A stretch of 43,852 nucleotides of DNA from Catajapyx aquilonaris (GCA_000934665.2 JYFJ02003327.1:1-43852), one strand, 5' to 3'. Positions 8,401 through 40,631 are shown, numbered from the stretch's first letter. The notes: generated by a model from the letters alone, not told the origin. Program-made: numbers and translations.

Positions 8401-8547
<147 letters not shown>

Positions 8548-9292: not shown

Positions 9293-9550
<258 letters not shown>

Positions 9551-9573
9551 TGACATGGCAGTGAGCCAGTGTA

Positions 9574-13239: not shown

Positions 13240-13410
13240 TTATGGAATATATAGAATGCCTAGGCAATGTGTGAAACATTATGCATTTCATACTTTGCCA
13301 GGCCAATTTAGGCATTCAGATTCTACAGAATCCCTGCTTTCATACGTTGCTGGTAACATAGAGGGTGTTCCAAGTTTGTGGGTCGTTTTTTAAAAATTGA
13401 TGTCGCCCGA

Positions 13411-13539
13411 AGTAGTTATATTTTTGTAGCTTGTGTGCCCCTAACCAGGTGCCCCATTCTATAGAAACTGCTATATTCGACCCCGTGGGAGTAATGGGGA
13501 ATCTGGATCAGGGCACAACAAGCTACACAAAAATAACTA
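13411..13539. repeat. Small palindromic repeat; second copy near 23779-23920
   Basis: gtagttatatttttgtagcttgtgtgccc ... gggcacaacaagctacacaaaaataactac. Confidence 0.6.
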
Positions 13540-13598
13540 CTCCAGGCGATGTCAGTTATATAAAGAACGACAAACTGACTTGGAACACCATGTATATA

Positions 13599-14046
13599 CA
13601 GGGTGAAAGAAAACTCGCAGATAATCACCAGGCAGACTGATACTACTCGCAAAACTAATCTAGGGATGTGCAATTAGTATTGGGCGTCATTGCATAGTTA
13701 ATGTGTACTTAAATGTGCCTTTAACGTGCAGAGGGCCGGATGGTAAAATACAAGGGAAAAACAACGAAGTGCACGGGTGTCGTACCAGGATTCTTACTCG
13801 GACGAGATTTGATCACCTATTGCACATGTACGCTGTGTTACGGACCCAAGGCTGGATTGTTCGGAGACCCTCGAGCTGGCTTTTTCTTCTTGAAGCTGGC
13901 AGAACGGATGTGACGTCATGAAACTTTAAAAGCGCAGTACGCATTAACTATGCAACGGTGTCCCAAACTAATTGCACATCCCTATATTAGTTTCATTATT
14001 ACTATCAGTCTACCTGGTGATTGTCGGCTAGTTTCCCTTCACCCTC
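13599..14046. mobile_element. Tc1/mariner-type MITE
   Basis: ta|cagggtgaa...ttcaccctc|ta with about 110-bp imperfect TIRs. Confidence 0.75.
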
Positions 14047-14051
14047 TATAC

Positions 14052-14440
14052 CAGGGGTGAGCAACCTTTTTTCTCCGTGGCTGCGTAGAGATTTTTAAAA
14101 ATTTGACAGGCCGCATCTAACAAGAAATTTGAACTTATTAAAAAGTTTACAATTATACGAGTAAATCCATTGTTTTAAATGAACTTCCATTAATTGCAGA
14201 AATTATCATTAAATTCTCAGAGAATCGATAAAATTAGCTAAATATATCAATGAAAATGGCCTATATCAGAAAACCAATATTTTAGTGGATTTAAAAGAAT
14301 TAAAAAGAAAGGCACAGGAATAAAATTATGCAATTTTAATTTTTCAAAATTTTTGGGAATGTCGAAATTTTTGCGCTGGCCGCACAGATTGTCTTCGCGG
14401 GCCGGATCTGGCCCGCAGGCCGTTAAGTTGCCCACCCCTG
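14052..14440. mobile_element. hAT MITE
   Basis: TIR caggggtgagcaac / gttgcccacccctg; 8-bp TSD ctctatac. Confidence 0.88.
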
Positions 14441-15107
14441 CTCTATACACTGTACTCCCCATTATCCAGGCTAATGGCTGCTCAGCTGTGGCGGGATAAT
14501 TGGAAAACACTGACAATTCAAAAATGACCTGAAGTACCGTAGAAATGAGCTATTCATAGGTTATTAATTAATTACTATACGTACTGTACGCTGCTTTAAA
14601 TAAGGTTTAATCAAAATAATGAAACTGACAATACATTTTGAGTTTGTCTTCTGGAAATATTCTGTTATATTTCTTTGTGTGCGAGACATTCTGACATTTT
14701 TTCGGACTAGGTATTTTCTTTAGTTTTGGGTGATGCACGGATAATCCACATGAAGATAATCAGGAGTACAGTGTATTACACGAATTGCATTGCAAGTGTT
14801 ATTTGACTAGTTTTTGAAATTAGGACAAGTTCATATGGTTTAGGTTTTAGGGTTTTGTCACTTGGTACTGTTCCTTGCACTTAGCAAAGCTTGTTTTATT
14901 GCTGTTAGTTATTTCAGCATGTGAAAGCTAGCATATTAAGAAAAAGCCAGCTCAAGGCTTATTCATGTCAGTTAACTTGCTGGTTACAGGTGGAAACACC
15001 TTAGCAGTTATTTCAGTTGTTGGTACTTTTCCTCCGGTATTTTCGAATACTGTAATACCAATGAAGTGCAGATGATTTGCGACTGAGCTATGCATTCTTC
15101 TCAACAG

Positions 15108-15122
15108 GAACTGACCATGTGA
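15108..15122 (+). CDS. NACA: NAC alpha, last coding exon (ELTM-stop)
   Basis: ttcttctcaacag|GAA CTG ACC ATG TGA completes the conserved C-terminus NAIMELTM; total 231 aa. Confidence 0.93.
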   Translation, partial: ELTM

Positions 15123-15996
15123 AGATTGTACTGGCAGGATGTTCTGAAAGTTCCAACAACTTGCGTCAGTTAATTTTCAGGAGGTTCTTGGTAATTGCTA
15201 TCGACTAAATTTTAAGTAATGATATTGCGGTTTTGCCACATTTTCTCTCATTGACGATCGTGAACAGCATCGTGAAGATTTTTACGACTGTGTATTTTCT
15301 AATTGGAGGCTAGGGATGGCTGGATTGAAGTTTTATAATTTTTCAAGATGCAGAAAGGCATCTGTGGAGGTATTACATACAATGGGTGTTAGTTTCATAT
15401 CACTTATTTTGTTTGGAAAGGCATGCCATTTCTCACTGATGTGGTTATTAGCTGGCACACTTTCAATGAGGAATGACAGATGGAGACAATGGGCATATCA
15501 AGTCAGAAATGTGCAATCCGTTGAAAAGAAAATTATTCAAAAGAAGTACAGGGTCTGTTTTACTTGGTACTTCATAGATGCCTCCTCCATGTCATTAAAA
15601 AGAGGCCTCCTAAACCTGCAAACCAAGGAACCCCCAGCCTGTAGCCTCATTACTTTATCCTGACCATTTATTTTAGGCCCACATGTATGTTGTTGTGTCT
15701 AGAGATGAATCCCATACAATGCAAGAAGGTACTCCTGTAGGATTGTAATGAGATAGTGAAATGATAACGATTCAACGGCTGCTGTTAAAAATTGGCTGTT
15801 TTCTGAACTATTTTCATTCGATAAGTATGAGGGAAATTGTGGCAATGCAAGCAGCTGCTGTACATCTTGGTGTGATGCAAACTATTCTGTGAAGGAAGTG
15901 GCAAACATGCATCCATACACGAACTTTAAAGCAACATACTTTGGATTATTATTTTTTGTCATGGTGTGTATGATGGCTGAGTCATTAATTTGCATT

Positions 15997-16002
15997 AATA
16001 AA
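15997..16002 (+). terminator. Candidate polyadenylation signal of NACA
   Basis: AATAAA about 875 nt after the stop; also present in the paralog near 30515. Confidence 0.45.
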
Positions 16003-18133
16003 TAGCAATGTGGAATATTCATGCCCCCTGTTGAAGCAAGCTGTGAAATAGGATATGACACTTAACTAATTAAGTTGTGAAATTACTGAATCAAGCCAAG
16101 TTAAAGCATATCCTGGCAAGAAGTACCAGGAAAGGTTTTGTACACTTTCAGCTTAATACATAGCTGAGATCCACTTGTGCACCTTGTTCATTTTCTTTTA
16201 AACCAGTTTTTCTCCCAAATGCCTCAAAAGCTGCTGGCAAATCCATGTGTCTTCCCAAGTCAGTATTTTGTAGCAAGACCTGTATACTGATTGAGGCCTG
16301 CCGCACTCAAGACTCCTGAATGACGTCAAAGAGGCATCTCTTGTTCGCCTCCCCCTGCCTGGGATTGGTTGGTTGGGGAGGCTACCTCTCACATGATTGA
16401 CACTGCCCCTGGATACTGGTGAGCAGGCTATAGTTGGTTGTATTTGCGTGGTAATACCATCCACTCAAATCTTCTGCTCATCAGCTGAAGAGCTGTTGAG
16501 TGGCCTCATGTTAGGCCTTTTTTTGGAGATTTTTTTTTTCTTCGGTTAGTGGAGGTTTTCAAAACTCAATGAACATGTATATCAAACGAAGGAGAAACAC
16601 CGGGAGAATGCGCCTATGGAATTAGTTTTCCTCTAAAATGTAAAAGTAAAATTTTATAGCATTTCATTGGTCACTTGCTCAGTCACATGCCCAAGAACTG
16701 TGACCTCCACAATTAGTGATGCATTTGCGTTGCATCAGTCACATTTGGTGACACTAGTTGTGACCAATATAAGGTTCAGTATGTTATGTTTGAGGACTGG
16801 GTCATGCATGGTTCGCGAGAAAATAATAGGTATGTTTTGCAGATATACCATTAATTTCATTATTCTATAAAAGACCATTTTGCTCTTTCTGAAGATACGA
16901 ATAATGATTCTTATAGTACTTTTCGCCCTGATTCCAAATCTGCACTTAGAATATTTTCTGCTGTAAGGCACAGTTTCTGAGATATACCGTCAAGCCACTT
17001 TTCAATTTCAGACATCTGCCAATTCAAGAGCATTGGCTCTAGAGATTAACTAATTGTTGTAAAACATGGGTCTACAGTTACGGTCGACGTATACATGGAT
17101 GAAAGTTTCCTACAACATGTATGATAAAAACAACAAAAAAGAGGGGGTGGCTTAAGTTACCTCTCTCTCTCTCTTCTTCCCCCCCCCCCATATGGGGTAA
17201 CTTAAGCCAGCAGGAAGAATTCAGTGTTTCGCTTATGTTAGACGATGACACGGTAACAAAGTCCGTTGGCAGGGCGAAAATAAACATTTGCATATTGCTC
17301 CAGATATTCATTGTTCAAAATTTCAGTAAAATATTGCAAACCGACATCGCAAAATATCGCAAACCGACATCGAACCGACATCGAAAAATATCGCAAACCG
17401 ACTAATGGATGGACTGTAATCCTACCTGAGCAGCAACCCCTCCCGTCGTTCACACCCGGAGCACAGATGGGAGGCAAATGACGGTTGGCAGGCGGACAGA
17501 CCTATAGACAGAAAGGCAGACAGACAGACTTACAAATGGCTTTATATAGATTTGTTCTTGCAGGTGCTGTTCAAATGACACGTAGAATTGCACTTAACCC
17601 AGATATGCCGAGTGTCCCCTATAGGGGACACCTGCACAGTTGTTACATTTTAATTTTTTGCGCAGGTTCTTCTGCCGCTAAAGAGCTGGCAGTAGTGACG
17701 GGGGCTTCAGTAGAGTCCCAGCTAACTATACAAGTTCAAACCGGCTCAATATTGCTACAGATTTTTAAGATACAGGTGTTTGAATTTTAACGCAGGAAAT
17801 AATGGCTGCACCTCCACGTTCCGAAGACGATTAGTAATTAATTGTCGAATGTTGATTAGCATTGTGAGTTATTTTTTGTTTGTAATACTTAGAAAACTTA
17901 TGAATGATGATGTCCATGTGGAAATATAGGCATATTTTTTACTTTCCTTGTCTGAGGGTGGCGTTGAAATCGGGTGTCCCCTATGAGGGACACTCGGCAA
18001 ATGCACCACAAATGGACCGGCAAGTCAAGCACCGGTACTCTCGGCTACTGTATGTGTCCGGATTTTGTGCGTTTTGTCGAACTGAATTTTTATGAATCCC
18101 TATTTTTAAAACGAGGGTTACCCGGCAACTGGG

Positions 18134-20028: not shown

Positions 20029-20538
20029 TGAATGTAATTCTTTGTGTGACTTACCGGTAAGTGTCAGAACGCTAGAGGTGGATTGCTAGGTCTCCATAAG
20101 TCAATTTTCAAGAAAAATTAGCTGAGGATATCGATTGGTAGCTTATGGTACACCCCACCCCCTCCTGAGGTCAGAATACACCAAATGTCTCTAGGTCCAA
20201 GCACGGAAATCGGAGGATTTTTCCAAAGCCATTAAGTCCATATATACAGAACAAAAACTCAAATCTCAGAATGACACAAATGGACCTAGGGGACATTGGA
20301 ATCCCGCCTCTTATGGTGAAGCAGGTAATAGTTCCTGGAAAATAAACAGGATCATCAAATGTTAAGTATTTCAACCATTTGCCAAACAGCAATAGGGTGA
20401 TTTATTTCCAGCATCTACATGGCATAGTGGGAAACAGGAAACTGCCACAACGAGTTATGGGCGTCTTCTAAACCAGCCATCCCGACACGAAATAGACGTT
20501 GGTAATTGTGGTGGGCCTGACTGTATTCCCCGACTTAA

Positions 20539-21307
20539 AGGAAGGGTTCAGTGATTTTGCATGTTGGGCTTCAGAGATCAAGGAAGACTCCCTGATTCCA
20601 AAAATGTGGTCAGTTTTGGAATCTGACGCCGCGTAAACAAATGCCGTTAGGTGAAAGTCCATATCCGCTACTGTATTCGATACGGTAAGAGTACAGCCAG
20701 CGCCTCCCGCGGAAATTCCGGTAACCTGCCACCACCGTGGCCAATGAGATTGGCTTAGTCTCGGAGCCCATTTTTGAACTAGGAAACTGCTTGCGGCTGG
20801 ATTTGGAACAAGGAAGTGAGAGGGAAGAAGGTGGGGGTAGGGCTCGAACTGGTATGGAAGTATCCCGTAGGCATAACTCGGAGTCGGCTGCCTTGTTTGG
20901 TCACTCGCGCCCGTGCTCGCCCCTGTGCTCGCGCCTGTCTCTCCCTCTCGCCCTCCGTCTGCCCTCCCCGCTGCCTTTCCATGGCCCTTGGCACTCGGGG
21001 CAGGTTCCACTCGGGTCGAAAACCCAACCATCTGGCTTGAATGCGGCTTGTCTCTGGGGGCTGCCATCTTTTCACGGGACACGGGTTCCCTCTAGCCACA
21101 AGAGTGGAAGCTTCGACCGCTGCATCGAAGTTTCCACTCTTGTGGCTAGAGGGAACCCGTGTTCGGCGCTGATTTTCAAAAAAATCAACTTTGACTTGAA
21201 ATTTTACGCTTATGGTGCATTTACCACCAAAACGGACCGGATATTCAGAATCAGAGAGTCCTGCTCGATTTTTGAAGCTCAACATGCAAAATCACTGAAC
21301 CCTTCCT
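20539..21307. mobile_element. Kolobok-like non-autonomous element
   Basis: ttaa|aggaagggttcagtgattttgcatgttg ... caacatgcaaaatcactgaacccttcct|ttaa. Confidence 0.85.
21079..21162. repeat. Near-perfect 84-bp hairpin
   Basis: acacgggttccctctagccacaagagtggaa ... ttccactcttgtggctagagggaacccgtgt. Confidence 0.9.
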
Positions 21308-24060
21308 TTAAGCACTTCTTCCACTAGTCTTGCTGAATAGCGAAAGAGCTGAATAGGCTTGAGTCATGGCACAAGTCATCGCTAACTATATTGCAAAAGT
21401 ATGGATACTGCTTCCCCAATAAGCCACACACGTAAAAATTGAAACCTGATTTATTTATTTTCTGCCAGTGATAACTTCGTATTTCATTTGGGAGTAGGAC
21501 TGTCCAATTTTCAGCAAAGTCGAAGTGCAAAACCAAGTGAAACATCTGTTTTGCAGGCTTAAGCAAAAAATACCACTTTTCATATAATATATGTGTGTAA
21601 GAGCGGAAAGTGGGAAGTGTGGCCAATGCTGCTCAAAAATAACACAGGAACATGAATGAATTTTGTTAGAATTCAGCGGTACGAACTTAGAGGAAGCCAA
21701 TCGGTCCGCTAGCTGCATGGAAAGTTGACGAAAGCTCTAAGCAGCTAACCGAAAAGTTATGCCCGCGGTTAGCGGATTAGCAGCGCTAATGTCCACCACT
21801 GCATTTTGTGCAGTACTGAAAATTCCTTAGAATAAGCTTTGGGTCAAGTATAGTAACACTTGACCGACCCAGGCCCACCCTTATTTTGAATTGTGCGCCT
21901 TCCTACGGGAACGTGGCTACAGTAGTCAAGTTAGGTGCAGAAATATTTCATGGAACGTGTAAGGAATACATTCTGGAGGACATTTATGGGTATCTAATTT
22001 TTTCCCCCTAATGTTTCATTCACAAAATGGCATGTTTTAAAATGTCCGGTAATTTTAGCCGAAATACGGAAATTTTGACTCTGGTGGTGCTGTTGCTTCA
22101 AGGCGTCAGGTTGCCAACGCTGCGTCGCTGCCAGAGAGAGACCAGTAGACCAGTAGACCAGTAGACCACTTTGGAGCCGACCAAAGATTCACTGCGTTCC
22201 TTGGCTCAGACCACTCAGACAATATCTAGGAGTCTACGTCAACGAGGTGAGTGATGCCCAGGCCCTGACCAGGAGCAGATCCGTGGGCAAACGCAGGGTA
22301 AGGGCCATTGCGACATAGGGAGAAGGCGAGAAAAGGGTGGGGGCGCGGGTGGGAGGCTGTGGGTCAGGCAGGAATAACAGTTGGCGGGAAGAGTCGCGGG
22401 TGGGGGGCGGGGGGACCAGGGGCAGCTCAGGGGCAAAGCGGCATAGCCAGTCTGAATCCTCAAAAATGCTATTTCCTCGTACAGACGTATTTGAGTGACC
22501 GGCACCAAGTACTGTACGTGTACGCCGCGTGGCCCTGTGACTTTAGTTAGATGTGAGCGTACTGTATCGAACTGGGTGCTAAATAATGGGTTTGCATTAG
22601 CGCAGCATCGGTGTCAGCAGGTGTCGGGTCTTGTGCTTGGCCCCCAGTTCAGGCCTGGAAAGAGAATCCCCCGGTGGGGTCTCCCCCCACCTCCCTCCCC
22701 CGACTACAGAAATGTATCCGTGGTTTTTGCCATTCTGGAACCACTGTCTGGAACTTACTGACTGGAGGGAGGACATTGGCCAATATGGCGGCGACACCCA
22801 TATCTCAGTACTTCATCCCGGCCCTCCTTCCCGCCAATATTTCCCGCCAAATATCCCCACCACCACCACATGGACTCCCTCTCTCCCTTCCCCCTCCCCC
22901 TGATGTGACGCATCTGGCAACACCGCCGAACACGTGGAGGGGGGTGAGTGGGGGTGACGCCATTCATGACGTCATCTGCGGCGGGGTTTGTCAGCGTCCC
23001 TCGCTGGCGTCCCCCCACCGAAAATCTGTAATATGCATCCGGGCCACCATGGACAATCCGTGTTTGCCGAATCAGTCGTATGTTGGCTCCACGTTGTTTA
23101 GTTCGGGTACACCCTGGTAAGTCATGGGAGTTTGCGAATCTCCAGTAAGGGCAATAACACTTTCTAGAATTTCCGGGGCCAGAATTCGGGAGTTTCCAGC
23201 GGAAACCCTCCTGATGGTGTAACCAGCCCTATAATGGGACTGTACATGACACAGGGGAGAGTATTGTTGAACTATGGGTACGTTTTCCTACTTAGTCTGC
23301 TGGAGAGGAGCTCCAGTGACATAGCTGGAGAGGGCCGTGGCCTCCTGTGGAGAGTACGGAAGTGCACTGTCAGAAAACAAACGCTCTGGAGGGCGCTTCC
23401 TTGTTGACCAACCACGGAATTCAAAACCCAATTCCTCGCCATTGAAGATGCCTGCCACCCATGAAGAGTGAACTGCAGTGACCTCCCCCTATATCCCCCC
23501 CCCCCCCCCAAATTGTTGCCACTCCTCAGCATAAAATTTCATCCCCTCTCCCTCTTTAGTGTTGGACTTATGGAATAGGTTAAAAATAATCTGGTATATG
23601 TGTCCAATAATACAGATTCCTGGTAAATGACGTCTTACTCCAGGAATAAGTCAGATTCAGGGAAAACACTTACTGCAAAAAAAAATTGTTAATTGTGTAG
23701 ACTGTAGACCTATGTGATAATAAAATCAATACATACTAGCCTACACCCTACAGGGTCTCCTGAATATTTGGGTTTTAGGTTTCATATTTATTGCCAAAGT
23801 AGTTATTTTTGTGTAGCTTGTTGCACCCTGATTCAGATGGCCCATTATATTTACAGGCGGTCGAATGTAACAGTTTGTGTATAATAGGGCACCTTGATCA
23901 GGGTGCAACAAACTACACAACAGCAACAGCTTCGAGCTGGTGCTGCAAACATGAAGGAAGCATAGGAAAACATGAAATTACTTTTACTACAGATCCAATA
24001 ATAATAGTACTGTACATGGTTTCAAAACCTGCTGTGATATGTGATATGACCCCAAATTTT

Positions 24061-24061
<1 letters not shown>

Positions 24062-24103
<42 letters not shown>
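24062..24103. repeat. (CT)n microsatellite
   Basis: Direct reading. Confidence 0.95.
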
Positions 24104-24106
<3 letters not shown>

Positions 24107-24440
24107 CTTCCCTTTCTCCCCTTCCCTCCCTCCCCCTCTCTCTTGATGCAGTTTTTTATACCAGCAAAAAAAACAGTAGCCGATGGCCACAAGCTTAAAG
24201 CATCAGTTCTTTTGTTCAAAACTGTTGTATATACTGGGATTGAATGATTCTTACCATACTAGATCTTGCATTGTAATAACTGCAGGAGAATGCACTTTGC
24301 AGCTTCTTTGTTATTTGTACTCCCCCGTCCATCAGTTCCTTTTTCACCATTCTGCAGAATGCAGGGAATGAAAAAAAAATTAACGGCCCAATATGTGGTG
24401 ACTTGTTTTGATGGCAAAAATATATTGCGTATACACCTGT

Positions 24441-24511
24441 GCTCCTACAGCTCAGGGGTAGAGCTGCACTTGTATAAAGTGTAGTCCTAGATTTGATTGC
24501 TAGTGGGAGTT
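24441..24511 (+). pseudogene. Degraded duplicate of the tRNA-like element at 4089
   Basis: Same position relative to the coding exon; B box and T stem mutated (ctagatttgattgctag). Confidence 0.65.
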
Positions 24512-24628
24512 GTAGTGCTTATGCGCAATGGTCACCCTGGGGCAGGACACTTGCATTACTTCCTGCATTGGCATTCTCAAGAGCAGGAACAATACTTATG
24601 TTTCATACTGCTTTTATGTACATTCAGC

Positions 24629-24925
24629 ATGCCCGAATTGACGGAACTGCCCAAGAAGGGGCAAACCAGTGACGAGAAGTGTGCAGGGATGTCTGGAGCT
24701 GGAGCTGCCGCTGCAGCTTCTGGATCAGGCACCGAGTCTGATTCAGAGGAGTCAATCCCTGAGCTCGAGGATGTGTCCCCAGGAGCAGGGGACGGTGCTG
24801 GGGCACAGGGTCAGAGCTACGCTGCTGCTGCTGCTGGTTTGGGGGAAGAGATGGTGTCCAAGGCTAAGCAAAGTCGTGGTGAGAAGAAGGCCCGTAAGAT
24901 CATGTCCAAGCTGGCCTTGAAAGAG
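24629..24925 (+). CDS. NACA-like paralog, coding exon 1
   Basis: 3 nt differences from 4293-4589; ends KLALKE|gtagg; splice sites intact. Confidence 0.85.
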
Positions 24926-25419
24926 GTAGGCTAAATTGGCATTTGACTGGTCAACAGCTATTGGTTTTGTGCAGCTTGTATGCTGTGTACTTTAAGGGTA
25001 CAGTGGAAGGATGGGCGTATGTTCTTGAGAACTAATCGTGCCAAGAGTGCTTTCAAAAATCAACTTATGCATGCTCCATTTAATGTAGTTGAATTTCCCA
25101 CCCCTCAATCTGGTCCTCCCTGTCTATTTCATCCAGGTCTGCTCCACATGAAAGTTCACAAATTGCTGACCGATTCAGATGAAAAAATGCATAAAATTGC
25201 TGTCTCATGACTCCTCCGATCAGGTACTTTTAGATTGCAAGGGTTTCCAGATGACAGTTTTTCTCTTCTTCTGTAAAATTTCTTATTATCGACTTACACT
25301 TAGCTGCTTTTGCTTTCGAGCTCTTCATATACTCTGGTACCAATTCACATGCAGCTCTATAAAGCGACTTCAGGCCAAATCAACTAGATGATGATATTAA
25401 TATTAATAATGATAGTGAT

Positions 25420-25652
25420 GGTAGGCCTCCTTGGGCCTTTTAGGGGATCATCTTTTAATCAACCATCTTTAATCATTGCCTGTCCTGTGATGGATTTTGA
25501 TTATGGGAGGAAATGGGAGCGCCACAAGAAAACCCACGCGAACACAGAGAGAACCCCTCGAAACTCGATCCACATGAGCATCCTCTGTCTGACCCGGGGA
25601 TTGAACTCAGGACCTCAGAGGTGGAAGGCTATGGCACTAGCCACTACACCAT
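25420..25652 (-). mobile_element. tRNA-derived SINE family B (V-domain-like), older copy
   Basis: Homologous to 25746-26007. Confidence 0.7.
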
Positions 25653-25745
25653 TCCTAATGAATCCCTTACTATCTATTTGATTTAGGGGCGGCACACCCC
25701 TAAATCCGGATCAACCTGTACTAGAAAACTGTATTTTAGGTATTA

Positions 25746-26007
25746 ATAATAATGGATACCCCGTGCTAGGCCTCCTTGGGCCTCTTAGGCGATCATCTTT
25801 TATTTAACCGACTTTAATCATTGCCTGCGCTGTGATGGATTTTGATAGCGGGAGGATACGGGAGAACCCCGAGAAATCCCACGCGAACACAGAGAGAACC
25901 CATCGAAACTCTATTCACATAAGTATCCTCCGTCCGACCCGGGGATCGAACTCTGGACCTTAGAGGTGGAAGGCTGCGGCACTAACCACTCCGCCACCAT
26001 GTCGCCC
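25746..26007 (-). mobile_element. tRNA-derived SINE family B (V-domain-like)
   Basis: Head GGGGCGACATGGTGGCGGAGTGG...GAGTTCGATCCCC; central GTTCTCTCTGTGTTCGCGTGGGATTTCTCGGGGTTCTCCCG; 17-bp TSD ctgtattttaggtatta. Confidence 0.82.
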
Positions 26008-26071
26008 CTGTATTTTAGGTATTAGGTATCACACTTGTAAAATTTGTTTGTGTGCATAAAAACAGACATTG

Positions 26072-26955
26072 CTGTGTGTGTGTGTTCTTGTCTTCAATAA
26101 GGTGTGGGGACGTAGGTCAGGGTTTCTACTGAAGCTGTGGGGACTTCGTCCCCACAGTCCGCATTGTGGGGACATTTCTCGGTCCCTACAGTGTTTCTCA
26201 CACAATGTGTACTATTAGAGTGGGGACATGTGTAAATTAGTGGGGACATGTCCCCACTATTTTCAGTTGTAGGGTTTCCCAAAAGTCCATTTTTCTCAGC
26301 CTACGTAAGTTAGGGTAGGGTAGGTTAGGTTAGGTCAGTTTACACAAGCTTCCAAAAGTAGAATTTTCACGTCTCCACGCCTTAGTGAAGACAGGTCTGT
26401 GTGTGTGGGTGTGTGTGTGTGGGCGCGTATTGCTATCCTTGTGAGGTATTTTTTTACGCGTTTTTCCTATCCTTGTGAGGAATTTTGTCATTACGAGGTA
26501 GTTTTCCTGTACCTCATAGTGAACACACGCCTCACAAGGATAGGGAAAAATCGAAAAAATTCCTCATAAAGACAGTAAAAATATATTTCACCAAAATTTC
26601 GCGTGTTTCCTTGTAGGTTAGGTTAGTTTTAAATTTTAAATTTTGGAAAAACCTCACAAGGATAGGAATGCGGCCCTGTGTGGGTGTGTGGACGTGCATT
26701 GCTACCTTGTGAGGAATTTTTTTCGCGTTTTTCCTATCCTTGTGAGGAATTTTGTCATTACGAGGAAGTTTGTTTTCCTGTACCTCATAGTGAACACTCG
26801 CCTCACAAGGATAGGGAAAAATCGACAAATACCTCATAAAGACAGTAAAAATATATTTCACCAAAATTTTGTGTTTTTTGTAGGTTAGGTTAGTTTTAAA
26901 TTTTGGAAAAACCTCACAAGGATAGGAATGCGCGCCTGGGTGGGTGTGTGTGTGA
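26072..26955. repeat. Composite repeat with internal direct and inverted motifs, possibly Helitron/Helentron-derived
   Basis: (GT)n tracts, repeated gtggggac, taggttaggttag tracts, two about 260-bp units built from tatccttgtgagg / cctcacaaggata. Confidence 0.6.
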
Positions 26956-27296
26956 TTGAGACATTACTATAGTCTTGTTTAAGGGACTCCACTGGAAAAA
27001 AAAACTGCCTATTGCAAAGTTCTTAGCCTGTGCTGTCTCCTGCATGTGATGGAGCTTCTTGCAGGCCTACTAGGCAGTTTTTTCCAGTAGTGTCCCAGTT
27101 TCAGGAGCTAAGGAATTAAGAATTCTGCAATGCTAACCCAAGTACTACTGGAATCAGAATTGCCTAATTCTCACTCTTTGGAGACTATGGGAGACCATAG
27201 GCATAGGTCATGGCTGGAAAACTATTCAAAATTGCCTTCTGATAGCTAGTTTTCATTCTTAATTTCTTGATGTTAACCTGAAATATATGCTTCTAG

Positions 27297-27437
27297 GGTC
27301 ACAGTCATTACGAAGAGGAGGCACTTGAAGTCCGACAGAAGGACATAGACCTGGTGATGGCGGAAGCCCAAGTCAGCCAAGATAAGGCTGTAGAAGCATT
27401 GCTAAAGAATAACTGTGACAGTTTTGATGCCATCTCG
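27297..27437 (+). CDS. NACA-like paralog, coding exon 2 (divergent UBA: GHSHYEEEALEVRQKDIDLVMAEAQVSQDKAVEALLKNNCDSFDAIS)
   Basis: ttctag|GGT...TCG|gtgagt, 141 nt, phase 0, no stop; 17/36 aa identical to the NACA UBA; flanking intron sequence homologous to that of exon 9293-9457. Confidence 0.82.
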
Positions 27438-28411
27438 GTGAGTAAATTTGCCCACAGTTGCTTAGGCAACTTCTTTCCAAGGAAAATGCGACATTTCAAC
27501 TTTACTTACCCTTGGTTGTTGGCTTGTTCTTGACATGGCAGTAGGCCAGTGTAAGGCCCTTTGTGATTTGAGCATTGGTTGCACAACTGACTTTTCTGTC
27601 AACACACAAGAATCGCACCATGGGGTTACACCATTCCGACTAGAATCATGTGACGTGTGATATCACACAGCCATCAGCATGAGTGCGAGTCCCGATAGGT
27701 CTGCTTCTCTGGCCGTGCTCCTGTGCAAGCTCCTTCTGAGTTGCAGCCTTCTTGGGGAGAAGAACAGGGGCAGGCTCTACCTATACCAGGACGCTGATTG
27801 GTTCTGATAAATAAGGATCAGTGGGAAGGCTGTCGTGCAAAACTTGGTCTCAGCTGTGGGCGCCTTGGGACTAGCTCTTGGAGTGGAGAAGGAGTGTAAG
27901 GCTCTGATTGGTTATATATTATGATTGAGACGGAACAGGGGAAAGGCATTAGAAGCAAGAGCCTGATCGCAGCCAACCAAAACCATCTCAAACAGAAATG
28001 GTTGCCTGTCTAGTAGTTTCTGATAAGACCTGTGGCAACCCCTTTTCGTCAGTCAGTAAGCATCTGGTCAAACTACCACGGCTCAAATAGCGAGGCATGA
28101 ACAGGCCTTTAGGGACTTGCATTGTCCTAATCACAAGACTGTTATAAATACAGTATGAATTGTATTACAAGTGTTATTTGAATAGTGCTTGAAATTAGGA
28201 CAAGTTCATATGGTTTAGGGTTTTGTTACGTGGGGCTGATTCTTGTACTTTGCAAAGGCTTGTTTTAATGCTGTTTCAATAGATCCCCGATTGTAATCAG
28301 GGTTCTACTGTAATTATTTCAGCAGCTGAAAGTAGGCATATTGTTGAGAAAACCCCGCTCAAGGCTTCTTCATGTCAGTTAACTAGCTGCTGACATGTAA
28401 GTAGGTTCCAG

Positions 28412-29492
28412 CAGGGCCGGCCCTAGGTCAGTGCAGGGCCTAGGGCAAGAACTAAATGCGGGGCCTATTGTCAGTGAGTGAATTTATGACCAACACGAAT
28501 TGCATATCCAACAATTTTGTTGGCTGACTTTCTCTAATAACATAAAGTCTCGCTCATAAAGAATGGTACGACTCTACGATGTGTTTATTCTGATTATCCA
28601 GCATTATTCCCAACCTGATTTCGTCGCGACACTATGGACAACTTGTCCTAGATCTCTGGCGACCCATATGACCCCCTCCCGACTTTTTCCGAAATTTTTG
28701 TTCAACCTGGTACAATGCTTACATAGATTTGAGATGAATTTCCCCCCTTAAATTTTCTTACTTTGCCTTGTTTTTTTTTCTTCTCTTTTTTTCTTGATTT
28801 TAATTGCCTTTTCCCAGCCTTCCTCATGACCCCTAAAAACATGCTGGTGACCCAGGGGTTGGGAACAGAATAGCCTAAGCAGATTGTCCACAGAGTCGTA
28901 CCATTCTTTATGAGCAGTAGGCCTACTGTACAACTGAGGTGCGTAAGCAGAAAATTTTCGTGTGCATATGTGCATATGAAGTAGAGGGCGGAAAGCGAAA
29001 GCCCACTGCAGGCGAGAATTTTTTGGGGGTTCAAGGTTACACGAGCTTAGTTGAATGTGGTAGAGTTGAATGGGTGTGTATTGATGAAATTGGTAGCACT
29101 TTTTTCAAAAAAAACATGAATTAGTAATGAATAATTGGGATTTTTGGAAGCGCGGGGCCTGGCAGTGATTAGGGAGGGAGACCCCACTGCGAGGGAGAAG
29201 CAAGTGCCTCGCTGCACTTATCGAAGGCGAAGGCTCGCAAATGTTGTTATCAGATAACATAGTTTAGGTTGGGGAGTCCTTTTTACCAGACGTGTTCGTT
29301 TCAAGAATCTGGCATATGATGCAGGAAGGATTTGTAATTTTTTTATTTTTAAATTTTTTAGCAAGACAATGAAAGAATGACAATATATGCGAGGATTTCT
29401 CAGTTTTGTACAATTCCGTAAGTTACCCGTTGTCTTCCCAAGCGCGATTCCTGCGGCAGGGGCCCTTTGTGCCCCCCCCCGAGCCGGCTCTG
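28412..29492. mobile_element. hAT-type non-autonomous element
   Basis: TIR cagggccggc / gccggctctg; TSD ggttccag / ggttctag; empty site ggttacag in NACA at 14982-14989; interior resembles about 10600-10950. Confidence 0.8.
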
Positions 29493-29623
29493 GGTTCTAG
29501 GTGGAAACACCTTGGCAGTATTTCATTGTTTTGGTACTTTTCCTTCCCTCCGGTATTTTCAACTATCGTAATACCAATGATGTGCAGATGATTTGCGACT
29601 GAGCTATGCATTCTTCTCTACAG

Positions 29624-29638
29624 GAACTGACCATGTGA
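29624..29638 (+). CDS. NACA-like paralog, last coding exon (ELTM-stop)
   Basis: ttcttctctacag|GAA CTG ACC ATG TGA, followed by about 1.4 kb nearly identical to the NACA 3' region. Confidence 0.82.
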   Translation, partial: ELTM

Positions 29639-31382
29639 AGATTGCTGGCAGGATGTTCTGAAAGTTCCAACAACTTGCGTCAGTTAATTTTCAGGAGGTT
29701 CTTGGTAATTGCTATCGACTAAATTTTAAGTAATGATATTGCGGTTTTGCCACATTTTCTCTCATTGACGATCGTGAACAGCATCGTGAAGATTTTTACG
29801 ACTGTGTATTTTCTAATTGGAGGCTAGGGATGGCTGGATTGAAGTTTTATAATTTTTCAAGATGCAGAGAGGCATCTGTGGAGGTATTACATACAATGGG
29901 TGTTAGTTTCATATCACTTATTTAGTTTTGAAAGGCATGCCATTTCTCATTGATGTGGTTATTAGCTGGCACACTTTCAATGAGGAATGACAGATGGAGA
30001 CAATGGGCATATCAAGTCAGAAATGTGCAATCCATTGAAAAGAAAATTATTCAAAACAAGTACAGTGTCTGTTTTACTTGGTACTCCATAGATGCCTCCT
30101 CCATGTCATTAAAAAGAGGCCTCCTAAACCTGCAAACCAAGGAACCCCCAGCCTGTAGCATCATTACTTTATCCTGACCATTTATTTTAGGCCCACATGT
30201 AACTATGTTGTTGTGTCTAGAGATGAATCCCATACAATGCAAGAAGGTACTCTTGTAGGATTGTAATGAGATAGTGAAATGATAACGATTCAATGGCTGC
30301 TGTTAAAAATTGGCTGTTTTCTGAACTATTTTCATTCGATAAGTATGAGAGAAATTGTGGCAATGCAAGCAGCTGCTGTACATCTTGGTGTGATGCAAAC
30401 TATTCTGTGAAGGAAGTGGCAAACATGCATCCATACACGAACTTTAAAGCAACATACTTTGGATTATTATTTTTTGTCATGGTGTGTATGATGGCTGAGT
30501 CATTAATTTGCATTAATAAATAGCAATGTGGAATATTCATGCCCCCTGTTGAAGCAAGCTGTGAAATAGGATATGACACTTAACTAATTAAGTTGTGAAA
30601 TTACTGAATCAAGCCAAGTTAAATCATATCCTGGCAAGAAGTACCAGGAAAGGTTTTGTACACTTTCAGCTTAATACATAGCTGAGATCCACTTGTGCAC
30701 CTTGTTCATTTTCTTTTAAACCAGTTTTTCTCCCAAATGCCTCAAAAGCTGCTGGCAAATCCATGTGTCTTCCCAAGTCAGTATTTTGTAGCAAGACCTG
30801 TATACTGATTGAGGCCGGCCGCACTCAAGACTCGTGAATGACATCAAAGAGGCATCTCTTGTTCGCCTCCTCCTGCCTGGGATTGGTTGGTTGGGGAGGC
30901 TACTTCTCACATGATTGACACTGCCCCTGGATACTGGTGAGCAGGCTATAGTTGGTTGAATTTGCGTGGTAATACCATCCACTCAAATCTTGTGCTCATC
31001 AGCTGAAGAGCTGTTGAGTGGCCTCAGGTGGTGAGCAGAGATACATTTAGGTCAAGTCAGGTAGCTGATAAGTGCTTTGCAGGTGGGTTCCACTCTGCTT
31101 TGTGTGTCTGTGTCATGGCATAATCCACGTTTTCCCCGCACCCCTATTTGGTTGTGCCCCTGTGAGGGGATGTAAAACTCAGTTACTGAGGTAGGTTCGT
31201 TAATGTTAGGCCTGCACACATTTGCAACATTTCTGTCTACCCTCTACACCCAGTCACAGGTTCCAATAAAAGGGCAATGAGCCGCCCTCCGTAGGACCAC
31301 AGACAGCTCCACACTCACACACCAAATGGATTTATTATGAGAGAAGAAGAAATGTACACCAAATGTCTTATTGAGAAATATT

Positions 31383-34128: not shown

Positions 34129-36270
34129 GGGGAGGCATGGTGGTCTAGCGGCTACGCCGCTGGCCAGCCAAGCGGGAGGCCGGGGTTCAAATCCCGTCCC
34201 CGTCACCTCTGCTTGGCCGGGTCTTTTCCGCTTTTCACCCGACATGCCTGGGCAGAATTGCACTCCCTACTCTGCCCGGGGCCCGGAGAAAAGGTCTGGT
34301 GGTTACAGTTTATATCATACAGAGCCCCCCTCTTGGGAACCTCCTTTCCCCCCTTAAGGCCGATTGTAACCCCTTTGGTATGGTCAAACTCTGCCACGAG
34401 GTGGCAGTAGTTTTGGCCTATCTTATAACATGGTGTGCGGAAGCATTTTTTCCCGCCTTTTTCTCCTTTATAACACAACCTAGAGACATGGAATCTTCGC
34501 GCGCAGAACGTCAACGTTTCACAAAATTGTTTGGTAAACCCAGATATTTTTTAAGTGTCTTGGTTTTTTATTTGACGCCTATATGAAAATTGGACTATTT
34601 TCGGATAAACTCGACAAATTGTCCTTTCCCACACTCAAGAAGGTATATGGTTGTGGGGAGGGGTAGAGGGGATGGGGTCAGAGAAGGGGGATAAGGGCCG
34701 GGGATAAGGAGTTTTGTAGGTTGTAAATGTAATGAGGAGGGTGTCCCAAAACCACCCTACCCTCCTCATTACATTTACAACCTACAACCCCGCATCCCGA
34801 AATGTTGGGGTCATTCGTTCCAACTCAAGTGAGCCGAAATGTTTCTGGGCCTGCAGGATTTTGGTGATGGGGAAAAATCACATGAGTACAAACTTCAGGC
34901 ATAACCCGAAATATCAAGTTTCAGTCAAATTATTGCGCAAAACCGTGTGGAGGGAGGAGGGGCACCCAAAATTTTGGAAGGGGCTGAAAATGAACTATTT
35001 TTAGCGCATTTTTCGAGTTAGTGGTTCCAAGTAGTCAAAACCCATACAACATCATGATCAAAAGAAAGAGAAAGACGAGGAGAATGAAACTTGTAATAGG
35101 TTTTTCTCATAAATGTAACCATGATGTGTGTGGCATTCCATCGGTCATGTGTCCAATTACGCGTATGGTGCTCCCAAAAATTCGCCAAAAAGGGCTTATT
35201 TTCAGCCCGTTACAAAATTTCGGGAGAACCCCTCCCAACGGTATAGAACAATATGGCTGAAACATAATATCAGCTTTTTATGGCATAGGTGTGCACTTCT
35301 GTGATTTTTTTTCAGCAAAATCCGACATGGTTCAGTCAGGGTAGGGTGGTGGAAAAGGGTCTGAGGCGGGGAAATGGATGCCTGGACTCTGGAGGGATCT
35401 GGGTAGGGGATGAGGTGAGATGGGGACAGAATAGACTGGTTTTCTTTCGCCGTATTCGCCCCTGCCCCCGCCTAATCTGTCAGAAAAGGTTCCAATTGTC
35501 CATCGTCCATCGAGTCATGCATTTCAAACACTAAAATACATACAACTTTGAAATTAATAAATCACGGCACCAATCGAATGCAGCTCATCCTGCGGCCGAA
35601 AAACCGTGGATTTCTGACGTTTACATGGCCTAGCAGAGATTTACGGCAATAACGGTTGTCACTGCCTGTCGTCAAAATCTCACTTTAGTACATATTGGAT
35701 TTTTTTGTTTTTTTACGAAACGCCCGGCCCACTGGCAGGGGAATTGTGAGGAGAGGTGCAAGGTGCAAGTGCAAAGGTCGTTTTGTGAGTCCCCCGGCCG
35801 CGGTTATTCTCAAGAAATCCCACTAAAAAGGGGTGAGGCTCGATGGCAGGTGGGGGAGGGGGTTGTAAATGATACAAGGGGTCTCCAAAGAAAACAGGTC
35901 CTTCCCCCCTTCTCTGGCCCTTCCATTTTATTAAATACGCCCGATTTCACGCCGCAACCTGACCTAGGTTCTGAATGGAAATATGTTGGGCTGCTCGGAA
36001 ATCAGTCCAGTTTTCATATAGGCGTCAAATAAAAAACCAAGACACTTAAAAAATATCTGGGTTTACCAGACAATTTTGTGAAACGTTGACGTTCGGTGCG
36101 CGAAGATTCCATGTCTCTAGGTTGTGTTATAAAGGAGAAAAAGGCGGGGGAAAAATGCTTCCGCACACCATGTTATAAGATAGGCCAAAACTACTGCCAC
36201 CTCGTGGCAGAGTTTGACCCTACCAAAGGGGTTACAATCGGCCTTAGGTCAGCATAGGGGTAATTAAATT

Positions 36271-36330
<60 letters not shown>
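34129..36330 (+). mobile_element. tRNA-derived SINE family C with (TAA)n tail, split by a DNA element
   Basis: Head ggggaggcatggtggtctagcgg...ggttcaaatccc; tail (TAA)n 36272-36330; TSD aaacccacttgg / aaacccacgtgg. Confidence 0.75.
34358..36243. mobile_element. Non-autonomous DNA transposon with about 240-bp TIRs (Kolobok- or Harbinger-like)
   Basis: ttaa|ggccgattgtaacccctttggta ... taccaaaggggttacaatcggcc|ttag; TIRs nearly identical. Confidence 0.85.
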
Positions 36331-36334
<4 letters not shown>

Positions 36335-37327
36335 CCCACGTGGTATAAAATTACTTGATGTAATAGAACAACAATCCCTTCAGGTGTTGAATGGAACAAC
36401 CAAGGGTGATGAGTTGGGAAGCTATACTTTTTGTGGGGTTCAAGGCCAGTCGACAATAGATTATGCAATCGTTACCCAACTGTTGTGGGGACGTGTAGTT
36501 GACTTTAAAGTTGGAGATTTGATGGGGTCTGACCATTTCCCGATTACCATCTCCTTGGTTGTGGCAAGACTGGATGACGAAAAGAAACTGGAAACCCAAA
36601 AAATTTCGCATATAAAAATTCCCCCAGGTGGTAAGTTATTTGGCACAATTATTGGATGAGGAATTGGCGGGTAGGGAAGAGGCACAGGACGTGCATGAGT
36701 TGGCCCAGATGCTCTGCTCTACTCTCTATACCCTTTGGCTGGGAAATGAGAAAATTTTCCGTACTTGCCAGCATGAACTTCGACTTAGGGAGACTGAAAA
36801 TACATTGATATCCCATCGTAAGGCCCTGCCTGCACTTCGAGTTAGGGAAGTTTATTTCCTATTATTTTACATTGTGACCAACCAAGCTCATCATTTTCTT
36901 CCACTTACAGAGAACTTCGACTTAGGGAAGTTCGACTTATAGAAGTTTTACTGTAATTTTATTAATTACAGGCAAAAATATTCAGATCAAAATGCTACTG
37001 TTGGAAAAAGGTCATATATTTATTTCTAATAAGGAAAGGATTTTTAGGTTCTTAAAAAACACTCAAATAGGTATAGGCATTTAGGCCCTGAAAACAGTCA
37101 AAATTAAGGCTCGTAATAGACAGTAAATATCAAGGAGGTCCTAATTTATTTTCATTCTATATTACAGCCTATACGATTGGCCACAGAATTTTGCAGCACA
37201 GTATAACAAACTAGCCGTTGGTTCATATTTTCGTTGATTAATCGCAGTTTTTCTGCGACGTCTGTCTAACATTACATTTCTACATGCTGAAAATGACCTT
37301 TTCGTCACACAAAGCAACTGGATCATA

Positions 37328-40573: not shown

Positions 40574-40631
40574 GTAGGCATCGTGTGTCGGTGCTACTGT
40601 GAGGTGTGGTGACCACTTTCTGTTTGCAGAC

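Follow-up and report, generated by a model that had tools for sequence, protein, structure and literature searches.

The 43,852-nt window, by which we mean the whole stretch of DNA analysed, carries a complete NACA gene (copy 1). Downstream of it, on the same strand, lies a second set of NACA-like exons (copy 2) which, from sequence comparison, is a tandem, partial duplicate of the adjacent gene and spans 24161-31029. The features of copy 1 are the following:

1278-1381 (start approximate), plus strand: 5'UTR exon, in a CpG-rich stretch and outside the duplicated segment
4292-15122, plus strand: complete NACA coding region, product of 231 aa
4293-4589, plus strand: coding part of exon 1
8404-8523, plus strand: NAC exon (Pfam NAC, 53.4 bits)
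8586-8684, plus strand: contact-helix exon, with a QQAQMAAAE stretch
9293-9457, plus strand: UBA exon
15108-15122, plus strand: last exon

The features of copy 2 are the following:

24161-24583, plus strand: upstream block, 77.6% identical to copy 1, not recently converted, holding a decayed tRNA-Ile
24584-25166, plus strand: high-identity, gene-conversion-like tract with exon 1; homology stops abruptly at 25166
24629-24925 (297 nt, 99 aa), plus strand: coding part of exon 1, an acidic disordered N-terminus and a basic stretch of 13 residues
25167-27239, plus strand: intron 1, largely composed of high-copy repeats, among them a 267-nt unit that is repeated twice
27240-27296, plus strand: intron flank 5' of the UBA exon (55 nt; identity to copy 1 92.7%)
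27297-27437 (141 nt, 47 aa), plus strand: UBA exon, diverged from that of copy 1
27438-27555, plus strand: intron flank 3' of the UBA exon (118 nt; identity to copy 1 93.2%)
28390-29498, plus strand: repeat insertion in the last intron, missing from one form in the DNA contigs
29624-29638 (15 nt including TGA), plus strand: last coding exon, encoding ELTM, with the stop codon at 29636-29638
29624-31029, plus strand: 3' stretch made up of the last exon, a 3'UTR (AATAAA at 30515) and the DNA beyond it as far as the duplication extends

Copy 2 keeps three exons and lacks the NAC exons

The preliminary description of this DNA proposed three phase 0 exons with GT-AG sites, splicing to an open frame of about 150 aa, and coordinates and translation bear this out. 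Joined, the three exons give 453 nt encoding 150 aa with 0 internal stops. Donors (GT at 24926 and 27438), acceptors (AG at 27295-27296 and 29622-29623), stop codon and polyadenylation signal are all intact, and the three exons with their splice sites show no disabling mutation (stop, frameshift, or splice defect). The ATG lies at 24629 while the exon itself begins at 24628, preceded by an AG acceptor at 24626-24627. Because exon 1 begins at an acceptor, an upstream non-coding exon is required, as in the neighbouring gene.

Equally borne out, for copy 2 as assembled, is the absence of the exons equivalent to 8404-8523 and 8586-8684. Searching the window by tblastn with the 40-aa and 33-aa exons of copy 1 returned only the exons themselves, all other matches having E values of at least 0.5. 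Sensitive blastn found no DNA homology between 25167-27239 and 4831-9237, the span that contains both NAC-region exons of copy 1. Copy 2 has no match to the Pfam NAC domain (PF01849), the sole match being the NAC exon of copy 1, and its exon 1 matches no Pfam family. The place of the NAC exons is taken by the 2.1-kb block of high-copy repeats in intron 1, which looks like damage and speaks against a living gene.

The 5' end of copy 1 was located through a spliced contig of run X5, whose loose end of 30 letters is identical to 1348-1377 and has no second match in the window when up to 3 mismatches are allowed. The donor of this 5'UTR exon has the context CAG|GTAGGC at 1381/1382, and CpG observed/expected is 0.7-1.3 over 600-2000. 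A 1773-nt contig of this run carries the copy 1 letters at the positions equivalent to 24733, 24915, and 24923, and has 381 letters between its exon-1 match and its last-exon match. The duplicated segment begins at 24161 (equivalent to 3796) and so leaves out the 5'UTR exon and the CpG-rich promoter; no second copy of this exon was found within the window. Copy 2 has in this way undergone the loss of promoter and essential exons that marks an unprocessed pseudogene. Just upstream of its coding region, copy 1 has a tRNA-Ile(TAT) at 4089-4159 (56.5 bits); at the equivalent place in copy 2 (about 24449-24520) no tRNA match was obtained even at E ≤ 10. The parental promoter and 5'UTR exon lying outside the duplicated segment, together with the decay of the neighbouring tRNA, also count against a living gene.

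DNA contigs give a partial check of the assembly. The left breakpoint (25166/25167) is bridged in three runs of one sample (25133-25448, 0 differences), the contigs reaching 34 letters to its left. These runs also cover 27268-27475 with 0 differences, and an unchanged UBA exon is present in DNA contigs of other runs. None of the listed contigs bridges the right breakpoint (27240) or the repeat-rich interior from 25449 to 26918, and contig depth over 25422-27080 climbs to thousands in the DNA runs. The place of the UBA exon within copy 2 is taken from the assembly, since its 93-98% identical flanks break short-read contigs. Further downstream, a joint 28389>29499 that skips 1109 letters occurs in one contig each of runs X1, X2, and X3, and in copy 1 the equivalent flanks are adjacent; the 28390-29498 insertion looks like an insertion polymorphism.

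Identity between the copies alternates along the duplicated segment

Tracts of high and lower identity to copy 1 alternate along copy 2 with sharp transitions and include non-coding DNA, which is the mosaic expected of gene conversion. The upstream block is the most diverged of the non-coding tracts (90/402 mismatched). Identity then rises to 97-99% in the exon 1 tract, where mismatches number 1/45 before the ATG, 3/297 in the exon and 8/241 in the intron. Further intron blocks are 81-86% identical, and the 3'UTR with downstream DNA (to 31029) is 98.3% identical.

Exon 1 retains the acidic N-terminal extension and basic stretch of NACα, and a stretch of 20 residues is common to the exon-1 ORFs of 10/10 fetched relatives. 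Three substitutions separate it from copy 1: a silent one at 24733 and two replacements, Gly to Ala at 24915 and Gln to Glu at 24923. They leave 97/99 amino acids identical. As an argument for the gene, this near-identity does not hold, because the exon lies within a 97-99% identical tract that takes in its non-coding flanks; the pattern points to gene conversion. The preliminary description also gave weight to the two replacements in the last four codons, beside the new junction. Their location is correct, but their clustering is explained by the boundary at this point between tracts diverged by 0.6% and 3.3%.

The UBA exon departs from this pattern, and its divergence, overlooked in the preliminary description, is the real signal at this locus. 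Over its last 37 codons it shares only 56% of nucleotides and 46% of amino acids with copy 1 (55.9% over 111 nt, 49 mismatches), and of the 38 residues of the domain 20 are identical to the neighbour's, with a net charge of -5 compared to 0 in copy 1. The exon is far more diverged than its intron flanks (49/111 vs 12/173, Fisher p = 1.5e-13) and even more diverged than the oldest non-coding block (90/402, p = 1.1e-5). Identity changes no more than about 10 nt from the acceptor and, at the other end, right at the donor. That an exon should differ so much more than the non-coding DNA around it suggests that it may have been kept as a distinct part of a protein.

Substitutions in the UBA exon indicate past constraint on the protein

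Synonymous sites of the UBA exon are saturated (pS 0.80-0.82 vs pN 0.28-0.34; synonymous vs nonsynonymous p = 1.9e-5), and identical nucleotides are distributed unevenly over the three codon positions (22, 27, and 13 of 37; chi-square p = 0.004). This codon-position pattern is partly expected if copy 1 alone is constrained, and a test that allows for it gives only p ~0.01. Replacements are conservative: in simulations that held the differences per codon position fixed, the BLOSUM62 total equalled or exceeded the observed one in 0.98% of 39,824 stop-free outcomes, and amino-acid identity reached at least 17/37 in 4.0% of them. The neutral substitution pattern of a pseudogene is absent from this exon, which reflects its history and not necessarily its present state. 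After 44% change the UBA is still recognisable, whereas the tRNA-Ile of copy 2 is beyond detection after only about 11%. The data fit an old, protein-constrained variant shielded from recurrent gene conversion.

The open frame, offered as evidence for a living gene, carries little weight and is near automatic. With every exon in phase 0, and with exon 1 and the last exon refreshed by conversion, the UBA exon (47 codons) alone has had room to decay, and 37-40% of neutrally mutated UBA exons kept an open frame in simulation. What lies far beyond chance is the substitution pattern of the UBA and not the open frame alone. Even so, the constraint is a long-term average, from which present-day activity of the gene does not follow.

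The UBA exon encodes a NACα-type UBA with a confidently predicted fold

The UBA exon of copy 2 passes the Pfam UBA_HYPK family (PF19026) with 30.5 bits against a cut-off of 27 and still scores as a C-terminal UBA of the NACα/HYPK type; the invariant columns of an 11-row alignment are retained. The structure prediction proposed earlier was run with AF2 and gave a UBA three-helix bundle (pLDDT 83.6; 33/47 residues at 90 or above). Foldseek placed a NACα chain as the best match to this model (rmsd 0.5 Å over 35 columns), with HypK chains ranked under five NACα chains and one archaeal NAC chain; E-values are weak for so small a domain (best 0.046). A phmmer search of the PDB at E ≤ 0.01 returned NACα chains alone (3/3 distinct sequences). 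Among 1.84 billion representatives, no protein was found nearer to the UBA exon than ordinary NACα UBAs (at most 51% identity).

Possible functions and alternative readings

Our favoured reading, held tentatively and with somewhat less than even confidence, is that copy 2 is a functional NAC-less paralogue whose old UBA has been preserved by selection. Gene conversion holds two parts nearly identical to the neighbour, namely the exon 1 tract including its flanks and the 3' end from the last exon through the 3'UTR into downstream DNA, and has also largely homogenised the introns beside the UBA exon. The UBA exon itself would be an old, independently evolving NACα UBA, still foldable and spared conversion. 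Most simply read, selection preserves this distinct UBA, and the locus would thus be a real gene. In the predicted 150-aa product, the acidic disordered N-terminus and basic stretch of NACα would be followed by a short acidic linker and then by a UBA that is markedly more acidic. Lacking a NAC domain, it would not form the NAC β-barrel with NACβ; lacking the contact-helix exon, it would miss the second Naa15 contact of NACα. The protein is therefore predicted to work independently of the NAC heterodimer; by means of its UBA it would target a changed partner or else compete. We infer that transcription would start from a new upstream promoter, possibly in the CpG-rich DNA of 20400-23200; both splice junctions of copy 2 and any binding function are likewise predicted.

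A less probable but serious contender is that copy 2 is a recently dead relic, i.e., a NACA paralogue that was long complete and functionally diverged, which would explain its constrained and protected UBA exon. A deletion and repeat insertions would then have removed the NAC exons and possibly the promoter as well. What is left would be untranscribed or of no use, with a frame open only through phase 0 and the renewal of exon 1 and the 3' end by conversion. The replacement of the NAC and contact-helix exons by repeats, the missing parental 5' exon and promoter, the decayed tRNA gene of the upstream block, and the polymorphic 1.1-kb insertion in the last intron all agree with this. Neither the uninformative open frame nor constraint tests that gauge the past speak against it, and heteroduplex rejection by an already diverged exon could have spared the UBA exon in the absence of selection. 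Yet 47 codons have gone free of stop, frameshift, and splice-site defect, the domain still scores above the Pfam curated cut-off and is confidently folded in the model, and homogenised flanks (about 7% diverged) around a distinct exon imply that the exon was spared until not long ago. The earlier wording 'rather than a dead copy' is upheld insofar as UBA constraint and exon-specific deep divergence rule against plain recent decay. As to plain decay, a recent partial duplicate drifting free of selection would account for the partial structure, the missing promoter, and the repeats in the intron. It also predicts equal divergence of exon and flanks, and leaves unpredicted both the synonymous excess and the conservative replacements (p ~0.01). 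Contradicted by the identity profile, the substitution tests, and the conservativeness simulations, this is the least credible of the explanations considered, and a very improbable one.

Two other explanations bear on how the UBA exon is used or placed. Read-through transcripts of copy 1 might join 8684>27297 and yield a complete NACα with a second kind of UBA, the exon 1 of copy 2 being a bystander. With the copies in tandem on the same strand and all exons in phase 0 this junction would be in frame, and the UBA constraint would be explained with no promoter or NAC exons needed in copy 2. Such a transcript would nonetheless have to pass the UBA exon, terminal exon, and AATAAA (15997) of copy 1 plus an 18.6-kb intron; the one spliced contig seen stops at copy 1's own 3' end, direct evidence was not found, and we consider this reading unlikely. 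Slightly more unlikely still is an assembly artefact, in which copy 2 would be complete and its diverged NAC exons lost in assembling the repeat-rich intron. High-copy and tandem repeats do fill 25449-26918, and the short-read contigs leave this interior and the right breakpoint unbridged. Against this, the stretch contains no N (the window's only N is at 18493), the left breakpoint is bridged with 0 differences in three runs, and no NAC-like coding remnant occurs elsewhere in the window.

Comparison with known systems

Statements of the preliminary description about known proteins agree with the portions of the literature consulted: the NACα UBA makes contact with both SRP54 and Naa15, and HypK, which has a UBA, is homologous to the C-terminus of NACα (PMC11372111; PMC13186951, both in excerpt). 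The long helix that precedes the UBA of HypK lies on the Naa15 TPRs, and the NACα contact helix corresponds to it (PMC11372111, in excerpt). Copy 2 derives from a NACA tandem duplication, with the same exon-intron positions, the same ELTM end, and a UBA of the same Pfam family whose closest solved chains are NACα; it differs from NACα in lacking the NAC domain exon and the contact-helix exon, so that the part for dimerisation and the tunnel exit is gone. Judging by the absence of the NAC domain, a canonical NACβ heterodimer is implausible for its product.

The resemblance to HYPK noted earlier stands in that HYPK and the predicted product are both small, lack NAC, and combine a disordered N-terminus with a PF19026 UBA at the C-terminus, but it is architectural only. 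Copy 2 is not an orthologue of HYPK: it arose by duplication of the NACA gene beside it, and its UBA is nearest to NACα chains. Nor has the long contact helix of HypK a counterpart, the exon for the equivalent NACα helix being missing and merely 13 low-confidence residues standing ahead of helix 1 in the UBA exon model.

Other NAC-less proteins with a NACα-type UBA occur in the 1.84-billion-protein library (P0126, P0129, P0130, P0132, P0127, and P0122; 37-49% identity to the copy 2 exon). Unlike copy 2, they carry two or three tandem UBA repeats and lack the NACα N-terminal exon, and they are no nearer to the copy 2 UBA than ordinary NACα UBAs. Lineage-restricted extra genes derived from NACα, such as the mammalian NACA2 and NACAD and the Drosophila germline NAC paralogues, are not known to have lost the NAC domain; copy 2 is likewise an extra NACα derivative, but one that lacks this domain.

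The primate L/M opsin genes are the classic example of tandem paralogues with distinct exons but introns that gene conversion has made uniform, and introns more alike than the exon they flank are taken in such cases as evidence of selection removing conversions of the diverged exon. Both opsin paralogues are complete and expressed, whereas copy 2 lacks its central exons and is a putative gene known from sequence. As in the opsins, the introns beside the UBA exon of copy 2 are more alike than the exon itself.

A partial NACA duplicate without the NAC domain

The window is eukaryotic DNA with a mosaic of CpG depletion, and it holds two NACA-derived loci on one and the same strand: copy 1, a complete gene, and copy 2, a tandem partial duplicate. 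Their exons are as follows:

End at about 1381, + strand: non-coding first exon of copy 1, in a CpG-rich stretch
4293-4589, 8404-8523, 8586-8684, 9293-9457 and 15108-15122, + strand: coding exons of copy 1 (231 aa)
24629-24925, 27297-27437 and 29624-29638, + strand: exons of copy 2 (150 aa), with GT-AG borders and phase 0 throughout

The second coding exon of copy 1 encodes the NAC domain (Pfam, 53.4 bits) and the fourth the NACalpha/HYPK-type UBA (Pfam, 41.4 bits). A 1773-nt contig of sequencing run X5 represents its spliced mRNA, with 381 letters between the first and last coding exons and the copy 1 letter at all three positions where the two exons 1 differ. For copy 2, the preliminary description had proposed a three-exon open frame, three substitutions in exon 1 and the loss of the equivalents of 8404-8523 (NAC exon) and 8586-8684 (contact-helix exon), and all of this was borne out. 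The substitutions are silent at 24733, Gly to Ala at 24915 and Gln to Glu at 24923. The open frame itself is nearly uninformative, since all exons are in phase 0 and 37-40% of neutral simulations also remain open.

Self-comparison of the window places 3796-16511 of copy 1 against 24161-31029 of copy 2. The homology begins within the first intron of copy 1, and therefore its promoter and 5'UTR exon were not duplicated; a 30-letter tag of that exon occurs a single time in the window. Between exon 1 and the UBA exon (27297-27437, 47 aa), copy 2 carries 2.1 kb (25166-27240) that do not match copy 1's 4831-9237 and consist of high-copy and tandem repeats. The NAC and contact-helix exons are absent both from this stretch and from the rest of the window, where tblastn returned only the exons themselves and other matches at E >= 0.5. 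A 267-nt unit with internal inverted repeats occurs twice at 26409-26950 (89% matches) and a 233-nt pair lies at 25419-25996 (85% identical); both reach depths of thousands in DNA contigs and are therefore abundant short repeat families of the genome.

Gene conversion has probably spared the UBA exon

Identity between the two copies is a mosaic and falls lowest, within the whole locus, in the UBA exon.

Identity between copy 1 and copy 2 by segment
Upstream block: 77.6% (312 matches, 90 mismatches)
45 nt ahead of the ATG: 44/45
Exon 1: 294/297
241 nt of intron downstream of exon 1: 96.7%
55 nt upstream of the UBA exon: 92.7%
UBA exon, final 111 nt: 55.9% (49 mismatches)
118 nt downstream of the UBA exon: 93.2%
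Other intron blocks: 81-86%
3'UTR and 0.9 kb further: 98.3%

Divergence in the UBA exon exceeds both that of its own flanks (12/173; p = 1.5e-13) and that of the oldest non-coding block (p = 1.1e-5), and identity switches no more than about 10 nt from the acceptor and exactly at the donor. The near identity of exon 1 is no sign of purifying selection because the surrounding non-coding DNA is equally identical; judged from its sequence, this tract looks like gene conversion. The clustering of the two exon-1 replacements beside the new junction, noted in the preliminary description, needs no special cause, because they sit where a 0.6%-diverged tract adjoins a 3.3%-diverged one. Over 24593-25162, contigs from three DNA runs of the same sample (X1-X3) disagree on which of the two copies their letters at 24915, 24923 and 25038-25125 match; whether de Bruijn paths jumped between copies that are 98% identical, or conversion alleles segregate, cannot be told from contigs. 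An RNA element was considered as the reason for the conserved intron flanks and rejected, as Rfam at gathering scores finds in the window only the tRNA at 4089-4159.

In a neutral pseudogene, conversion homogenises exon and intron alike, and without conversion both diverge alike. An exon far older than its flanks would thus require recurrent conversion between the tandem copies together with a barrier to conversion in the exon. Selection for a distinct UBA would be the simplest such barrier, the logic classically applied to the primate L/M opsin genes. Alternatively, an already diverged exon could trigger mismatch-driven heteroduplex rejection and so halt conversion tracts with no current selection; the pattern is for this reason proof of past, not present, function. 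With introns 93% and exon 56% identical, the locus is a clean small case of exon-sparing conversion, a pattern that can point to function, from sequence alone, in partial duplicates which annotation pipelines would call pseudogenes.

The UBA exon carries the marks of constraint

The divergence of the UBA exon is not neutral decay. Over the final 37 codons synonymous change is saturated (pS 0.80-0.82) and pN is 0.28-0.34 (synonymous versus nonsynonymous, p = 1.9e-5), and of the 37 codons, 22 agree at position 1, 27 at position 2 and 13 at position 3 (p = 0.004). When the 49 differences were placed at random, 17 or more of 37 residues stayed identical in 0.09% of 200,000 trials. Because constraint on copy 1 alone would add only silent changes and thereby produce part of this pattern, the test was repeated with the differences per codon position fixed. 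The observed BLOSUM62 total of 80, against a simulated mean of 55.8 (sd 10.3), was then reached in 0.98% of 39,824 stop-free simulations, and the observed identity in 4.0%. This test replaced an HMM-based null whose family rows had been selected as matches to the UBA exon. The BLOSUM62 result gives moderate but consistent support for the view that the lineage of copy 2 itself evolved under constraint.

Further, the exon clears the curated cut-off of the Pfam family UBA_HYPK (30.5 versus 27 bits), retains the invariant columns of an 11-row alignment and is predicted to fold as a three-helix bundle (residues 14-24, 28-37 and 42-46; 33 of 47 residues with pLDDT >= 90). In Foldseek it is matched best by UBA chains of NACalpha (9syr_Na: 54% identity, with rmsd 0.5 A over 35 columns); five NACalpha chains and one archaeal NAC chain come ahead of those of HypK, and no Foldseek match has E <= 0.001, as expected for 47 residues. 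With phmmer against the PDB, three distinct sequences were found at E <= 0.01, each of them NACalpha.

A neighbouring element provides a comparison. The first intron of copy 1 contains an intron-less tRNA-Ile(TAT) gene (4089-4159, + strand; Rfam 56.5 bits, also called by ARAGORN), 134 nt upstream of the NACA ATG. The duplicated stretch of copy 2 (24449-24520), with about 8 changes in 70 nt, has lost letters of the T-arm/B-box and is not recognised as a tRNA even at E <= 10. Function that is not under constraint thus erodes in copy 2, and the UBA has been preserved. We consider it probable that the UBA exon was long maintained as a distinct protein domain.

Present-day expression and competing explanations

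That the 150-aa NAC-less protein is made today is a reading we hold tentatively, at somewhat under even chances. Five runs are listed over 24161-31029, none of them as RNA: four are DNA runs from a single sample and the fifth is of unspecified kind. The contigs of X5 cover exons and repeats only and are transcriptome-like; over 24000-31100 the copy 1 mRNA is their sole NACA contig, and they give no cover of 27081-27554, a blank that says nothing about copy 2 expression. Exon 1 of copy 2 begins at an acceptor site, the inherited promoter and first exon being absent. The sole candidate start is an unannotated GC- and CpG-rich stretch at 20400-23200 (GC 0.5-0.6, CpG o/e 0.6-0.87) without a Pfam match, whose end lies 1.4 kb before exon 1. 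Long ORFs occur in it in several frames of both strands, and it could serve copy 2, or else an unrecognised gene, as a promoter island.

These features, along with the repeats that fill the copy 2 intron in place of the lost essential exons and a polymorphic 1.1-kb insertion in its last intron, tell against a living gene, as does the lack of any closer relative of this UBA in the protein collections searched. They suit a recently dead relic of an older paralogue, a possibility to be taken seriously, under which the constraint on the UBA exon would date from the paralogue's functional past; against it, the exon shows no stop, frameshift or splice-site defect. Use of the UBA exon by read-through transcripts of copy 1 would dispense with a promoter of copy 2, and the copy 1 mRNA contig runs on to copy 1's own last coding exon; we regard this explanation as very unlikely. 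Loss of copy 2's NAC exons in assembly seems a shade less probable still. None of the short-read contigs spans the interior of the repeats or the right breakpoint, but contigs of three runs of one sample bridge the left breakpoint with 0 differences and carry the UBA exon and its immediate flanks without difference. A plain young pseudogene would account for the partial structure, the missing promoter and the intronic repeats, yet the evidence from the UBA exon contradicts it, and we consider it highly improbable. If copy 2 is dead, it is no more than an ordinary relic whose conversion pattern is instructive.

In DNA contigs of X1-X3 a joint at 28389>29499 skips 1109 nt of high-copy repeat sequence, and other contigs cover the insertion (28390-29498), which is probably a heterozygous transposon insertion; a further joint, 28223>28349, skips 125 nt.

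Predicted product and its possible partners

Judged by the anatomy of the gene, the product (150 aa, predicted pI 4.6) would consist of the acidic disordered N-terminus and basic stretch of NACalpha, a linker 8 codons shorter than in copy 1, and the UBA. The two UBAs share 20/38 residues, and net charge is -5 in copy 2 versus 0 in copy 1, owing to several replacements of Arg, Asn or Ala by Gln, Glu or Asp in helices 1-3.

The NACalpha UBA is studied as a flexible arm recruiting SRP and the enzymes of N-terminal acetylation to the ribosome, and HypK is a free UBA protein of the NACalpha/HYPK family that can regulate NatA. According to two reports, this UBA docks on Naa15 and SRP54 through an exposed hydrophobic patch with polar and charged contacts around it, and the contact helix (motif QQAQLAAAE) forms a second Naa15 contact, homologous to a HypK helix (PMC11372111; PMC13186951). 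In the window the motif is encoded by 8586-8684. As copy 2 lacks this exon and the NAC exon, it has neither the contact helix nor the barrel for NACbeta; if made, its protein would act away from the NAC dimer on the ribosome, by its N-terminal tail and altered UBA only.

The HYPK-like reading of the preliminary description stands as far as architectural resemblance goes but does not make copy 2 an HYPK proper, given the missing contact helix and the origin as a duplicate of NACA. In its fullest form, which we regard as rather unlikely, copy 2 would be an independently evolved HYPK-like regulator: a soluble 150-aa protein with the NACalpha disordered N-terminus and a strongly acidic, re-tuned UBA, driven by a new promoter, kept distinct by selection against gene conversion, and competing with NAC for SRP54/Naa15-type UBA clients or serving a new client. 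If so, the recruiting arm of NAC would be uncoupled from the ribosome-bound barrel. A NACalpha derivative without barrel and contact helix, its UBA charge-shifted and selectively kept, would, if real, be a ready-made separation-of-function variant and would mean that free NAC-type UBA proteins arose a second time, independently.

Relatives and neighbouring features

In the protein collections searched, no UBA closer than NACalpha UBAs was found; since even the exon of this organism itself seems to be missing from these collections, such a negative result does not argue that relatives lack it. A word-index search of longer proteins with the UBA exon gave 24 candidates, of which 0 scored, near-length proteins gave none, and 291 pattern stretches from a metagenome contig scan yielded none confirmed. 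HMMER over 1.84 billion representatives returned 13 hits at E <= 0.001 (best identity 49-51%), and all ten that were fetched are ordinary or repeated NACalpha-type UBAs. With the exon-1 protein, 407 of 564 candidates had E <= 0.001, with a best identity of 77% among the matches listed; the ten fetched, out of 120 listed, are exon-1 ORFs running into the intron, none with a UBA. No NAC-less NACA paralogue is described among the literature matches listed.

A Pfam scan of 31 ORFs of at least 90 aa found nothing between 16.5 and 24.6 kb, and downstream weak KIF21A-like and DUF5932 matches only, apart from two features:

36264-36656, + strand: endonuclease-reverse-transcriptase fragment (29.2 bits) of a LINE-like element
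40578-41174, + strand: MATH-domain ORF within a CpG-rich region (39.8-41.2 kb); Pfam MATH_2, 56.1 bits

Six small proteins of the 1.84-billion-protein library (P0126, P0129, P0130, P0132, P0127 and P0122) consist of NACalpha-type UBA repeats, two or three in each, without a NAC domain, and may form an undescribed family of free NAC-type UBA proteins.
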